A stretch of 4,765 bases of DNA, taken from the IMG/VR virus record IMGVR_UViG_2695420643_000018, positions 1-4,765 of that record. One strand, written 5' to 3'. Made by a program: the position numbers and the translations under genes. The notes under the pieces are model-generated. The model was not told the origin of the DNA. It did no database searches and was given only the letters and a program-made list of their open reading frames with translations. The DNA is from a virus (taxonomy: Duplodnaviria; Heunggongvirae; Uroviricota; Caudoviricetes). This document shows, one piece after another, positions 1-4,765 of this stretch; the first letter of the stretch is position 1; each line of letters begins with the position of its first letter.

Positions 1-393
1 ATAATCCCCGGAGAAAGTCGACACACGGCTGTAAGCCACACCCGCCATCGCATACGCGCTGAACCATTCATTCACGCGCACAGACGGCCCCGCCATTACG
101 CTGAACCAGCGGTTACGCACGGAATCTTCATGCCAGCGGGTATCGCTGTAACGGGTAAGCTGGCGATTCTTGTCTCCTGCATAGCTGAATGACGTCACCA
201 GCCCCAGCGTGTCCGTGAATTCATAACGGTATTTCACGTTAATCCCGTTAAGATTATCGCTACCGGGAGCGTTCGTCCGGGCATGAAGATACCCCGCGCT
301 CAGCGTGGCCTGCTGCTCAGACGCCCATGCAGGCGCACCGGATACGGTCAGACAAATGGCTGCGGACAAAATGGCGGCATAAAGTTTACGCAT
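1..393 (-). CDS. lom: Lom outer membrane protein (Ail/Lom/PagC/OmpX family), 3'-partial; 131 N-terminal codons in window
   Basis: Hand translation of the minus strand from the ATG at 393..391 gives [131 protein letters not shown], near-identical to phage lambda Lom as I recall it. It has a Sec-type signal peptide with an AWA/S cleavage motif. A GAGAGG Shine-Dalgarno sits 5 nt upstream. The position immediately downstream of J matches lambda gene order. The frame is open to the window edge. Confidence 0.95.
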
Positions 394-398
394 AATTA

Positions 399-404
399 CC
401 TCTC
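399..404 (-). promoter_or_regulatory. Shine-Dalgarno (GAGAGG) for lom
   Basis: Minus strand reads aaaagcGAGAGGtaattATG, with 5-nt spacing to the lom start codon. Confidence 0.6.
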
Positions 405-417
405 GCTTTTCTGCAAT

Positions 418-443
418 AAAAAAAGGCGTCATTTCTGACGCCC
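418..443 (-). terminator. Rho-independent terminator between J and lom
   Basis: Minus strand reads GGGCGTCA-GAAA-TGACGCC followed by TTTTTTTAT: a 7-bp perfect GC-rich stem, GAAA tetraloop and 7-T tract, about 20 nt after the J stop codon. The plus-strand version has no T tract, so it is unidirectional. Confidence 0.65.
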
Positions 444-460
444 GTTCTGGGTTATAAAAT

Positions 461-3400
461 TCAGCTGATACTGATACCTGCTGTGGATTTTTTCATCACC
501 ACAACCAGCAGATCGCTGATACTTGCTGTGGGATACCAGTTATTTACCAGCCATGCTGACACCGAAAACTCCAGCGTCATGTGACCGTGACCGGCAGGCA
601 TATCAATAACGCCACTGTAAATCAGCGTATTATCCAGCGCGGTACGGTTATAAATTTCAGCACCGTTTTTCCGCACTATCAGACGGCATGAGGAGTAAAT
701 ATCAGTATGCTCTCTCTCATGTTTAGCGCCGCTGAATGCCACCGCCGGAATAACAATTTGCCGGTCAAACGGCTGATCGTCATAAACCCTGACGGTAATG
801 GTCCCTGATGGCCACCGCTCCGGTGCACGGGAATCCCGGGGGAAAGCTTTGCCCACTGTTTTAACGAGATCGCCTTCAATCTGGTTCGCGGACAGTTTTC
901 CCAGAACCCGACAGTTCTCGTTAATCGTGACGTTGTTGAGCGTCCCGGAATTCGCATTCACGTTACCGCTGATATCAGCATTTCTTGCGGTCAGCCTGCC
1001 CTCCGGCGTCAGGGAAAACGTCGGGGGATTGCCGGACGAGGTGATACTCACCGCAAACAGCCGCTTCAGGAACACGTCGTTCATGAACAGCTGATTCCCC
1101 TGCGCCACAAATAACGGAGTGCTGTTGCCGCTCTCCGGATTTATCATCGCGATACGGTCAGCCAGCAGCAGTATGTTGCTCAGTGGCTGGCCATCAGTAT
1201 CCTCAATCCCTGCACCAATCCCGGCCACATAGGGTATGCCATTTTTTGTTTTCTGTACCTTCAGCATGTAAAGTGCAGCAAGGTCATCATTTGTGTCCTT
1301 CTGCACGCGCTGTATCTGCTGTATGGTGGCGCTCTGGTCCTCCAGCGTTTTACTGACCGTCTGTGTGATTTCATTGCGGGTTTCGGTGATGGAGGTCTTC
1401 ATCTCCGCCATCTCATCCGCAAGCTGGCTGTTGTCTATCAGCTCCCACAGCCCCTGAGCCAGATGCAGTTTTCCTATTTTTTCCCGAAACAGCCCCAGAT
1501 ACCCTTCTGCATCATTGCTGGCCCGGCCACTGGCTTCCACAAAAGCAGATTTCCCCACCAGGTTGACGCTGCGCACGTAAAACCAGAAATCCTTCCCGGG
1601 CTTAATGTGCGGGCCGGATACACTCCACTGACTGCCGGTCCCCAGATAACGGGCAGAGGTTTCCACCTGAGATGTATCTGCGATTTTTGTCTCCGAAAAC
1701 CAGAACTCAAACTGTACCGTCGGGTCATACACCGCAAGACGCGGGACCGCNTTAAAAATCTCCTGACCATTGCGGGTCACTCTTAACCGGCAGGTTGAAT
1801 ACCAGTATGACTGTTGGTTATTACTGTTGAAATTCTCATGCTTACCACCGCGGAATAACACTGGCGGTATCATGACCTGCCGGTCAAACTTCTGATCATC
1901 ACTGATTCTTACCGTGATGGTGCCACTGGCATAAGTGCTCGTGCGGGGGAAAGACTTGCTGACCGTTTTGACAATATCGCCTTCAATCTGGTTGGCTGAC
2001 AGTTTCCCCTTAATCTGACAGTTCTCATTAATCGTGACGTTGTTGAGCGTCCCTGAGTTCGCATTCACACTGCCACTGATATCCGCATTTTTCGCCGTCA
2101 GTCGCCCGTCCGGCGTCAGGGAAAATGCCGGAGGATTGCCGGATGACGTGATGCTCACCGCAAACAGTCGTTTCAGGAACACGTCGTTCATGAACAGCTG
2201 ATTCCCCTGCGCCACAAATAACGGAGTGCTGTTGCCGCTCTCCGGATTTATCATCGCGATACGGTCAGCCAGCAGCAGTATGTTGCTCAGTGGCTGGCCA
2301 TCAGTATCCTCAATCCCTGCACCAATCCCGGCCACATAGGGAATGCCGTCTTTCGTTTTTTGAACCTTCAGCATGTACAGCGCAGCCAGGTCATCATTTG
2401 TGTCCTTCTGCACGCGCTGTATCTGCTGAATGGTGGCGCTCTGGTCTTCCAGCGTTTTACTGACCGTCTGTGTGATTTCATTGCGGGTTTCGGTGATGGT
2501 GGTCTTCATCTCCGCCATCTCATCCGCAAGCTGGCTGTTGTCTATCAGCTCCCATAGCCCCTGAGCCAGATGCAGTTTTCCTATTTTTTCCCGGAAAAAT
2601 TCCAGATACCCTTCACCATCATTGCCGGGCTGCCCGCTGACTTCCACAAACGCAGATTTCCCCACCAGGTTGACGCTGCGCACGTAAAACCAGAAATCCT
2701 TCCCGGGCTTAATGTGCGGGCCGGATACACTCCACTGACTGCCGGTCCCCAGATAACGGGCAGAGGTTTCCACCTGAGATGTATCTGCGATTTTTGTCTC
2801 CGAAAACCAGAACTCAAACTGTACCGTCGGGTCATACACCGCAAGACGCGGGACCGCTGTTATCTGAAAATAGCCCGGTGTCAGCTCAATCGTGGCGGGT
2901 ACCGCAGGTGCATTAATCCTGAACGTGGTGGTGGCCGGTTCCCCCTGCTGGCCATAACTGTTAATCGCCCTGACCGTCAGGGTGTATTCCCCCGGCGGCA
3001 GACCGCTGAAACGGTGCTCTGTATCCGCGGTGATGGCGGTGGTCACCAGACGGCTGTCCTGACCGCTTCCACTGGTCAGGCGCAGACTGAAGCGCACGCC
3101 CTTCACCACCCGCGGCGTGTCCCATTTCGCCTGCGCCAGATACTGGCCGTCAGCTGCACTCACCTCCACCGTCAGGTGCTGCACTGCCGGAGGGATGACG
3201 CTGTTCAGTGAGCCGGACATCGGCTCAAAGCGGGCCCCGTTATCCACAATGGCTTCTTTTTCCGGCACATGCTGCACCGCCGTGATGGCAAAGGTGCCGT
3301 CCGTGTTTTCCCGGATGGAAACACAGCGGAACAGGCGACGACGCAGTGACGGCAGGGAGAGTCCCCACACACCGTATGTCGCCACGCCATCCGGCAGGGT

Positions 3401-4765
3401 ACTGACCTGTATCCGGTCCGGCGCGGGGTGTGCGGTGATGTCCACACTCACCGGCTTACCGCTGCCGTTAATCAGGTTCACCGTCGATGTACCTGTCTCC
3501 GGCAGTGTCACCTCACGGTCCAGCGTCAGGGTGCGGCTGGCGGCATCAATGGACAGGACACGTCCGCCGGTCATGGTCCCGGCATAGTCGTTATCACAGA
3601 TTTCAATAATGTCACCGGGTGTGTGACGCAGCCCCTGTGACCCGAGCGTGAAATCCACCGTCTGCGTTTCCAGCAGTCCGGTCTTTATCACCCACAGCCC
3701 GGCACGGTGGGCCTGACCGCGACTGGTGCAGCCGAACGCATCCATCTTCAGCAGGTTGCGCCCGTAGCGCAGTATGGCTTCCGGGTCTTCCACCAGTTCC
3801 GTGGAGGTCTGCCAGCCGTTCTGCGGGTCGGTGTAATTCACCTCCACCGCCGTGTGGCGGTCCTTCAGGGCNNNNNNNNNNNNNNNNNNNNNNNNACCAC
3901 TGAAACGATGCTCTGTATCCGCAGTGATGGCGGTGGTCACNTCTGCGATTTTTGTCTCCGAAAACCAGAACTCAAACTGTACCGTCGGGTCATACACCGC
4001 AAGACGCGGGACCGCTGTTATCTGAAAATAGCCCGGTGTCAGCTCAATCGTGGCGGGTACCGCAGGTGCATTAATCCTGAACGTGGTGGTGGCCGGTTCC
4101 CCCTGCTGGCCATAACTGTTAATCGCCCTGACCGTCAGGGTGTATTCCCCCGGCGGCAGACCGCTGAAACGGTGCTCTGTATCCGCGGTGATGGCGGTGG
4201 TCACCAGACGGCTGTCCTGACCGCTTCCACTGGTCAGGCGCAGACTGAAGCGCACGCCCTTCACCACCCGCGGCGTGTCCCATTTCGCCTGCGCCAGATA
4301 CTGGCCGTCAGCTGCACTCACCTCCACCGTCAGGTGCTGCACTGCCGGAGGGATGACGCTGTTCAGTGAGCCGGACATCGGCTCAAAGCGGGCCCCGTTA
4401 TCCACAATGGCTTCTTTTTCCGGCACATGCTGCACCGCCGTGATGGCAAAGGTGCCGTCCGTGTTTTCCCGGATGGAAACACAGCGGAACAGGCGACGAC
4501 GCAGTGACGGCAGGGAGAGTCCCCACACACCGTATGTCGCCACGCCATCCGGCAGGGTACTGACCTGTATCCGGTCCGGCGCGGGGTGTGCGGTGATGTC
4601 CACACTCACCGGCTTACCGCTGCCGTTAATCAGGTTCACCGTCGATGTACCTGTCTCCGGCAGTGTCACCTCACGGTCCAGCGTCAGGGTGCGGCTGGCG
4701 GCATCAATGGACAGGACACGTCCGCCGGTCATGGTCCCGGCATAGTCGTTATCACAGATTTCAAT
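461..4765 (-). CDS. J: Host specificity protein J (lambda gpJ-like tail tip / central tail fibre), 5'-partial; reading frame as given contains two in-frame duplicated blocks and N-gaps, likely chimeric
   Basis: One continuous minus-strand frame runs from the window edge to the TGA at 463..461. The ATG at 4732 is internal (upstream codons [11 protein letters not shown] are in frame). The translation matches my recollection of lambda gpJ at [39 protein letters not shown]...[18 protein letters not shown], the FN3-like blocks ([27 protein letters not shown]), [71 protein letters not shown] and the C-terminus ...[11 protein letters not shown] (lambda ...IKKQALGISVV). Lom lies directly downstream, as in lambda. 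Confidence 0.85.
1081..1750 (-). repeat. Direct repeat (downstream copy) of the J C-terminal-half segment, variant B, leading into the intact C-terminus
   Basis: Partner of 2188..2857. It begins immediately after the single N at 1751 with codons [18 protein letters not shown], which belong to the end of the 825-bp block. Confidence 0.85.
2188..2857 (-). repeat. Direct repeat (upstream copy) of the J C-terminal-half segment, variant A
   Basis: Aligns to 1081..1750 at a constant offset of 1107 nt (= 369 codons). Several 60-nt blocks are identical, including a fully identical core 2668..2857 = 1561..1750; other blocks carry scattered substitutions. Homology continues with lower identity toward the C-terminus (about 1827..2187 vs 720..1080). 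Confidence 0.85.
2784..3607 (-). repeat. Direct repeat copy (lower) of an 825-bp J segment covering an FN3-like domain; apparently 100% identical to 3942..4765
   Basis: Comparison by eye in 60-nt blocks at a constant offset of 1158 nt (= 386 codons) found no mismatch. The same antisense ORFs recur at this offset in the supplied ORF track (3117..3587 = 4275..4745; 3205..3447 = 4363..4605). Confidence 0.9.
3872..3895. other. Run of 24 N (gap or masked bases) inside the J reading frame
   Basis: Exactly 24 undetermined bases (8 codons). Known J sequence resumes at 3871 (ALKDRH...); a 45-bp out-of-context fragment sits on the other side. Confidence 0.95.
3896..3940 (-). other. 45-bp orphan fragment of an FN3-domain coding segment, bounded by Ns
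   Basis: accactgaaacgatgctctgtatccgcagtgatggcggtggtcac differs at only 3 positions from 3006..3050 and 4164..4208 (minus-strand [15 protein letters not shown]). It is placed N-terminal to the ALKDRH segment, where my recollection of lambda gpJ has N-terminal-domain sequence (...FRYSFS) rather than an FN3 strand. Confidence 0.7.
3942..4765 (-). repeat. Direct repeat copy (upper) of the 825-bp J segment; runs to the window edge
   Basis: Identical to 2784..3607 at offset 1158. Identity starts immediately after the single N at 3941. The copy may continue beyond the window. Confidence 0.9.

Follow-up and report, generated by a model that had tools for sequence, protein, structure and literature searches.

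The duplicated architecture of the lambdoid tail-tip gene J in the window, which is the whole 4765-nt stretch of DNA that was analysed, is very probably a scaffolding artefact, that is, a false duplication of several near-identical prophage J genes, and not biology; a probability of about 0.93 is assigned to this reading. The window is composed of a minus-strand lom gene and four fragments of J, designated A to D (Table 1). Each fragment is collinear and gap-free with a single natural lom-J locus, yet the fragments are mutually non-collinear, and the entire window shrinks to about 2.76 kb when placed on a complete genome. An earlier picture of three fragments has to be abandoned, since it had left the 45-nt island at 3896-3940 unseparated.

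Table 1. Coordinates of the lom gene, the J fragments, the N tracts and associated features of the window.
Feature	Position	Strand	Characteristics
Ail/Lom outer-membrane protein gene, 5' part, 131 codons	1..393	-	Pfam PF06316 Ail_Lom, E=4.8e-77
Terminator-like hairpin followed by T-run	424..443	-	8-pair stem, 5 GC pairs, tail TTTTTTATTG
1423-codon ORF through all three N tracts	461..4732	-	J domains duplicated and permuted
Fragment A: lom with the 3'-terminal 1290 nt from J allele 'A'	1..1750	-	Ungapped 1750-nt alignment, 99.2% identity
74-nt block, three copies	1677..1750, 2784-2857, 3942-4015		Repeat family D3, 100% identity
Single N, placeholder at mis-join 1 (A/B)	1751		Both 200-nt flanks 100% identical to L063
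Fragment B: 2120 nt from the interior of J allele 'B'	1752..3871	-	Single ungapped alignment, 98.1% identity
24-N run, sized gap at mis-join 2 (B/C)	3872..3895		L063 5620 to 4751
Fragment C: 45-nt piece of third J allele	3896..3940	-	Homologous to 3002-3046, repeat family D4, 93%
Single N, placeholder at mis-join 3 (C/D)	3941		L063 4795 to 4533
Fragment D: copy of 2784-3607	3942..4765	-	0 mismatches over 824 nt

Fragment A matches the lom-gpJ locus of E. coli O103:H2 FWSEC0007 in a single alignment. Its C-terminal receptor-binding domain is complete, with the stop at 461, and its end is the last base of the 74-nt block. Past this end the O103:H2 FWSEC0007 locus reads CGTTATCTGAAAA, the homologue of the window from 2858 onward, and not TTAAAAATC. 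Fragment A is homologous to window positions 1834-2857, the final 206 nt being identical, and over the alignable part the divergence between A and B is 0-24% per 50-nt bin. The reference for fragment B is the gpJ gene of E. coli O157:H7 Balcarce_24.2 (natural locus L063, positions 3501-5620 of a CDS at 3314-6790); the fragment is devoid of the last 62 codons of its gene, stop included, and of the first ~390 codons, and past the equivalent of position 3871 natural J genes read GCTGAAGCTGTAGCGG. Fragment C shows three differences from 3002-3046, all of them synonymous, and matches L063 4751-4795 as well as the J pseudogene of O145:H28 RM13514 at 100% identity. In an exact scan its 45-mer was found in 60 IMG/VR contigs, among which the window itself is not present; the same scan of genome contigs did not yield the source record either. 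Fragment D is cut by the window end, and the copy may extend further; its identity to the natural lom-J locus is 96.5% in an ungapped alignment. The perfect identity of D to B over 824 nt, while A and B diverge, fits one contig used twice. At least three J alleles are represented in the window, and the source genome would carry several copies of J.

The lom gene at the window start belongs to the Ail_Lom family, matching the profile from its N-terminus (positions 1-131 of 199). Its start codon is located at 393-391 and the gene is truncated by the window start; the annotation under the match in complete genomes is 'Ail/Lom family outer membrane beta-barrel protein'. The hairpin, which is a consensus match only, separates the J stop codon (461-463) from the lom start.

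Apart from the single Ns at 1751 and 3941 and the 24 N at 3872-3895, all of the 4765 bases are A, C, G or T. Comparison with natural J genes revealed exactly three breaks in collinearity, and each of them coincides with one of the exactly three N tracts at an offset of zero; by our own arithmetic, the chance that three randomly placed tracts coincide with three breaks in 4.7 kb is roughly 1e-10. Across the tracts the coordinates on L063 pass from 4606 to 3501, from 5620 to 4751 and from 4795 to 4533, giving jumps of 1106, 870 and 263 nt, all of them backward and all within J. As expected for false duplications, the N tracts separate duplicated copies on one scaffold (A from B, B from C and C from D) without any offset, and each copy runs collinear with a region that finished genomes, which lack the junctions, contain once.

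The Ns are gap placeholders, neither ambiguous base calls nor unread bases of a real molecule. Ambiguous calls at SNPs between paralogues were rejected, since the sequence 3' of the N is not collinear. At 1751 the natural A-type base is C and allele B has T, a difference which had made the SNP reading tempting. The earlier note had placed the N at 1751 at the point where variant A is cut off, and this is confirmed: A ends at 1750, and beyond the N a second J variant takes over from a point within its C-terminal domain. The N at 3941 was said to mark the start of an upper copy of 825 bp; the copy indeed begins at 3942, and its length is corrected to 824 nt. Likewise, the 24-N run was said to border a unique 'ALKDRH' segment. 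The run does adjoin position 3871, the minus-strand start of 'ALKDRH', while the supposed uniqueness of 3608-3871 arises because the window ends at 4765, and from nothing else. Consensus-calling across repeats, offered in the same note as an alternative to scaffolding, is superfluous, as the Ns act as gap placeholders.

The alternative that the structure is real supposes that J of the source strain carries in-frame internal duplications, with two different C-terminal receptor-binding modules in tandem in one polypeptide, the Ns being base-calling failures at recombination joints. In its favour, J genes have a mosaic make-up that reflects recombination among prophages, and the mismatches of the fragments to their closest alleles are clustered in blocks; nevertheless, it is regarded as extremely improbable, and the search for the junctions in other sequences speaks against it. 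Of 5,426 complete E. coli genomes and 50,697 phage records, not one contains junction 1 in a single place; a rearrangement private to one strain would escape complete-genome collections. Exact scans in which N stood for any base detected the junction 1 pattern in none of the genome, viral and metagenome contigs, and the junction 3 pattern in none of the viral and metagenome contigs; as a control, an N in the pattern does match a stored N. In complete genomes, the two sides of junctions 2 and 3 were found only apart from each other and in reversed order. The 21 and 620 records that matched junctions 2 and 3, respectively, at >=80% coverage were rejected as real joins, because nearby pieces had been merged by the search; on the matching records the swapped pieces span 598 and 263 nt. 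In addition, a 24-N run is no base-call ambiguity, and the Ns are confined to the joins.

The domain content of the window also argues against a real rearrangement. The J-specific Pfam domains all score far above the curated cut-offs, and the matching complete genomes carry a gpJ annotation. The window contains two Ig_J, three Ig_J_second, two Phage_Tail_Tip, two Ig_GpJ_C and one Phage-tail_3 domains. Natural J genes have lengths of 3474-3477 nt, and the canonical single domain set of a gene of ~3.5 kb is not what the ORF at 461-4732 encodes: most J domains are present in two to three copies, Phage-tail_3 is placed after an Ig_J copy, and the allele-B receptor-binding domain stops 62 codons short, in mid-domain. 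The order is permuted rather than simply tandem. This non-canonical order is a property of the scaffold, the fragments being individually canonical, and the ORF is artefactual. No identical protein was found for the ORF when it was read as far as the window end.

The single ORF of 1423 codons, without a stop across the three N tracts, is a point in favour of a real rearrangement. The naive chance of in-frame passage through three tracts is 1/27, and taken naively such read-through could hint at a real in-frame fusion. Retention of the frame is, however, accounted for by fragment ends at wobble positions. In the window, five of the six fragment ends abut the third position of a codon, and with other drafts included the proportion is 14/20 (binomial p=9e-4), which is expected if the ends sit at synonymous differences between paralogues. 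The ORF stays open across both single Ns because the flanks on both sides abut a wobble position; the 24-N case is still a 1-in-3 coincidence. Switching of tail-fibre genes by invertible segments or cassettes was also considered and rejected: programmed variation of the Gin/Cin type is expected to have inverted repeats on either side of alternative C-terminal cassettes, no inverted repeats of >=20 nt are present in the window, and both C-terminal variants are direct copies on the same strand.

Similar joins recur in unrelated drafts, which is a further argument against a real rearrangement. Nine more single-N joins were identified in the draft E. coli contigs L015, L018 and L039, and in five of these both flanks lie inside J and are related by a backward jump. 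The recurrence of single-N backward jumps in other drafts agrees with a scaffolding artefact.

The positions of the breakpoints point to the kind of process involved. Fragment A ends on the last base of the 74-nt block, and fragment D begins on its first base. Among natural J alleles the flanks of the block are polymorphic (A or G at -1, T or C at +1), and the base preceding the start of fragment B is polymorphic too (A/C). Breakpoints at variant boundaries are therefore found for three of the six fragment ends, namely the end of A and the starts of B and D, and the 74-nt block is probably a collapsed repeat node whose edges determine where A ends and where D starts. The end of B and both ends of C have no adjoining variable site among the sampled alleles, so the simple graph-node picture does not fit every end. 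For fragment C a simple de Bruijn unitig model was rejected, since its ends are not k-1 from the flanking variants at any sensible k.

An artefact of another process, such as reference-guided ordering, partial gap-filling, stitching of contigs or reads with N spacers by a database or pipeline, or later masking, is considered unlikely, if somewhat less so than a real rearrangement. Fragment C, only 45 nt long and with an N tract on either side, would be an unusual contig, and a partial gap fill is a possible origin for it. The scanned genome-contig collection does contain a few stretches masked as N, but non-collinear flanks would not arise from masking. Ordering of contigs along a reference was rejected: the fragments, whose starts on a natural locus are 2854, 3501, 4751 and 4533, are sorted by neither start nor end coordinate, an order that simple placement along a reference does not reproduce. 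The breakpoints at the edges of the polymorphism-bounded 74-nt block point instead to a graph-based assembler.

The scaffolding behind the false duplication most probably took the following course. The window comes from a draft scaffold of the short-read type, and its source is an E. coli-like genome that most resembles Shiga-toxin-producing lineages and carries several lambdoid prophages. The J genes of these prophages share long near-identical stretches; they differ in the C-terminal receptor-binding domain and at scattered sites, most of which are synonymous. Identical stretches collapse to shared nodes of the assembly graph while differing stretches form alternative branches, and the scaffolder then chained alternative branches and re-used nodes in series rather than side by side. 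The resulting chain would comprise lom with the 3' end of allele A (fragment A), allele B (fragment B), a 45-nt scrap of a third allele (fragment C), and the shared middle of J once again (fragment D). A distance estimate of zero or below, with no mergeable overlap, could have been written as a single N, and a small positive gap as 24 N; we infer this meaning of 1 N as opposed to 24 N in the window. By a scaffolder convention, one N would here denote an unresolved overlap. An explicit statement of 'single N = unresolved overlap' was not found in the literature, where the support is indirect.

Lambdoid prophages notoriously fragment short-read assemblies of Shiga-toxin-producing E. coli (STEC) (PMC7175801, PMC4928038), single-N insertions are regarded as construction anomalies (PMC5902842), and gaps lying between the duplicated pairs of one scaffold are a primary mark of false duplications (PMC9516828). 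Two proposals of the earlier note are borne out: that the Ns at all junctions reflect scaffolding across repeats, which is supported by the lack of collinearity, by junctions that were not found elsewhere, by the polymorphic block edges and by the recurrence in other drafts, and that the duplicated architecture is at least partly artefactual, since ordinary single lom-J loci account for all of the fragments.

The significance of these observations is one of quality control only, and no new biology is implied. At face value, the scaffold gives a J protein of >1,400 residues with X residues and duplicated Ig-like and receptor-binding domains, which might be deposited in protein databases as a 'novel' tail-tip architecture or make J genes appear too numerous. 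Three features may be used to screen prophage-rich drafts for false duplications, namely single-N joins located within multi-copy prophage genes, flanks with a backward jump on the reference gene, and fragment ends at wobble positions.

The window resembles the false duplications described in vertebrate assemblies (Ko et al. 2022, PMC9516828), in which the duplicated pairs are located on one scaffold and separated by gaps. In terms of the types distinguished there, the divergent pair A and B is like a 'heterotype' duplication, and the identical pair D and B is like re-use or a 'homotype' duplication; as in those assemblies, the product is a spurious gene model carrying extra domains. Unlike the vertebrate cases, which involve two diploid haplotypes, the sequences confused here belong to paralogous genes of prophages within one haploid bacterium, and the window was judged from sequence, whereas Ko et al. 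2022 applied read-depth and read-pair criteria.

The assembly breaks reported for STEC/EHEC genomes (PMC7175801, PMC4928038) are a closer parallel, as they concern the same organism group and have the same cause, structural genes common to many lambdoid prophages. The best matches of the window are gpJ-lom loci of O103, O145, O157, O26 and O111 strains, and a single genome has up to 18 J-like places. Contig breaks are the subject of those papers, whereas in the window the broken pieces have also been chained into one scaffold with N placeholders. Finally, the fragments are ordinary J followed by Ail/Lom, as in lambda, where the tip attachment protein J has lom downstream, and the gene order and annotation match complete genomes. 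Unlike lambda J, the ORF in its present form shows domains that are duplicated and permuted, and its second receptor-binding domain is truncated, which is a trait of the scaffold and of no demonstrated gene.

Undetermined bases interrupt the window at exactly three places: a single N at 1751, a run of 24 N at 3872-3895 and a single N at 3941. They separate four fragments, A to D (see table). The repeat analysis showed that the final 206 nt of fragment A, whose last base directly precedes N 1751, are identical to 2652-2857, and that the 824 nt directly following N 3941 (3942-4765) match 2784-3607 with 0 mismatches, a copy truncated where the window stops. One 74-nt block is present at 1677-1750, again at 2784-2857 and a third time at 3942-4015, and the 45-nt island between the 24-N run and N 3941 matches 3002-3046 at 93%. 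The earlier note had placed undetermined bases at the repeat junctions, and its coordinates are correct, A ending at 1750 and D starting at 3942; the upper copy begins where it was said to, but measures 824 rather than 825 nt, and the 45-nt island is an additional, fourth fragment.

Features of the window, natural counterparts of its fragments, and single-N joins in draft-genome contigs
Feature	Sequence	Position	Strand	Remarks
Ail/Lom outer-membrane protein, first 131 codons	Window	1-393	-	Encoded
Terminator-like hairpin GGGCGTCAGAAATGACGCCT, then T-run	Window	424-443	-	Between J stop codon and lom start codon
Lambdoid tip attachment protein J sequence	Window	Beyond hairpin	-	Pfam
ORF, 1423 codons	Window	461-4732	-	In frame across all three N tracts
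Fragment A	Window	1-1750		99.2% to L062, lom-J locus of E. coli O103:H2 FWSEC0007
Fragment B	Window	1752-3871		98.1% to L063, lom-J locus of O157:H7 Balcarce_24.2
Fragment C	Window	3896-3940		100% to L063 4751-4795
Fragment D	Window	3942-4765		96.5% to L063 4533-5356
Single-N joins	IMG/VR contig L015	6138, 8431, 9797
Single-N joins	IMG/VR contig L039	1986, 4279, 5901
Single-N joins	IMG/VR contig L018	2952, 4452, 7095

Annotations of the matching DNA in complete E. coli genomes name a 'phage attachment tail tip protein J' and, after it, an 'Ail/Lom family outer membrane beta-barrel protein'. A single genome has as many as 15-18 J-like places, and the closest matches are Shiga-toxin-producing strains of O103, O145, O157, O26 and O111. 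The Pfam domains of the 1423-codon ORF show duplication and a scrambled order: there are two copies of Ig_J, three of Ig_J_second and two each of Phage_Tail_Tip and Ig_GpJ_C, with a partial Phage-tail_3 placed after an Ig_J. An N-tolerant gene caller would output this ORF as a chimeric 'giant J' protein with X residues.

Each of the four fragments aligned ungapped to one natural lom-J locus, and approximately 2.76 kb of one complete genome covers 95% of the 4765-nt window. All N tracts coincide with backward jumps, from 4606 to 3501, 5620 to 4751 and 4795 to 4533 in the coordinates of the O157:H7 locus. Natural A-type genes continue beyond the equivalent of 1750 with the homologue of window 2858 onward, natural B-type genes have the other 62 codons of J before the equivalent of 1752, and past the equivalent of 3871 the natural continuation is GCTGAAGCTG.

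Among complete E. coli genomes (5,426) and phage records (50,697), none contained a 200-nt query across 1751 (junction 1) in one place; matches comprised one half or the other only. Queries over 3872-3941 had high nominal coverage, but in every case this was split into two or three pieces that lie in swapped order and span 263 or 598 nt in the record; the swap was verified explicitly at the locus of O145:H28 RM13514. In exact scans the pattern N stood for any base and, as a control showed, also matched a stored N. Junction 1 was absent from the genome, viral and metagenome contigs alike, and junction 3 (N 3941) from the viral and metagenome contigs, the collections scanned for it. The collinearity of the fragments with natural loci and the absence of junction 1 elsewhere support the earlier note's proposal of scaffolding across repeats; the duplicated J architecture is an assembly artefact, not a real feature. 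A real, rearranged in-frame J gene would agree with the reading frame preserved over all three N tracts, but is very unlikely, given that junction 1 is not present in complete E. coli genomes or phages, junctions 2 and 3 occur solely as pieces in swapped order, the domains are permuted, one of the receptor-binding domains is cut short, and the Ns are confined to joins, where base-call ambiguity cannot give a 24-N run.

The 74-nt block, whose last base is the end of A and whose first base is the start of D, is bordered by sites that are polymorphic among natural J alleles (A/G at -1, T/C at +1), and the site preceding the start of B is likewise polymorphic (A/C). A node into which several paralogous J genes had collapsed in an assembly graph would behave in this way. 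Codon third positions adjoin 5 of the 6 fragment ends in the window, and 14 of 20 when similar joins in other drafts are included (binomial p=9e-4, a somewhat optimistic value because two other contigs have junctions in common). At each of the two single-N joins, codon third positions adjoin the N on either side, so that the N fills the wobble slot of both flanks and the reading frame is preserved; this accounts for the sole oddity that could have argued for a real gene. Frame preservation across the 24-N run is a 1-in-3 coincidence. Some fragment ends do not fit the node picture, namely those of C and the end at 3871, which had no adjoining variable sites in the sample of alleles examined.

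In a short-read graph assembly, stretches identical among at least three J alleles would have been merged and the alleles separated where they differ. A scaffolder may then have threaded the alternative branches in series, using the shared nodes again, with one N where a positive gap was not estimable and 24 N for a gap estimated to be small. Writing one N would follow a convention of scaffolders like SSPACE, ABySS and SOAPdenovo. Other artefacts, such as reference-guided ordering, gap-filling residue, stitching or masking, are improbable: the order of the fragments on the reference is sorted by neither start nor end, and masking would leave flanks collinear, unlike those seen. Published work agrees with the scaffolding account in general terms: short-read genomes of Shiga-toxin-producing E. 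coli break up at lambdoid prophages (PMC7175801, PMC4928038), single-N insertions have been marked as construction anomalies (PMC5902842), and a gap separating duplicated pairs on one scaffold is a primary sign of false duplication (PMC9516828).

Scanning IMG/VR with the 45-mer yielded 60 contigs, among which the draft-genome contigs L015, L018 and L039 contain multiple J fragments and nine further single-N joins; five of these nine have both flanks inside J and a backward jump as in the window. One draft-contig break is no more than 10 nt away from the break at window 3871. L015 and L039, from different genome projects and with different IDs, have two identical single-N junctions, one being CCAGATACTG-N-TCAGCTAATCG; one of the two was confirmed by pattern scan. 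Identical junctions are what a deterministic assembler would yield on related strains, and they suggest a systematic artefact of one pipeline.

The J gene of O145:H28 RM13514 (NZ_CP006027.1; L001 3782-6767) contains the 45-mer allele with 100% identity. Its annotation is that of a frameshifted pseudogene, and an internal deletion of about 486 nt removes the counterpart of window 3055-3540. Fragment B has 40 differences from its nearest natural allele, L063, in two clusters (2126-2225 and 3005-3392), 31 of them at codon position 3; they could stem from J alleles being naturally mosaic, or from paralogues that collapsed into a chimeric consensus. The two J alleles of the window show 76-100% identity per 50-nt bin from ~861 to 1750, but at a fixed offset only chance-level identity over the final ~400 nt (461-860 vs 1752-1967), which encode the C-terminal receptor-binding domain. 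Lambdoid J genes that exchange receptor-binding domains usually diverge in this way. The genuine biology in the window consists only of a lom gene and mosaic J alleles of lambdoid prophages, all of them ordinary.
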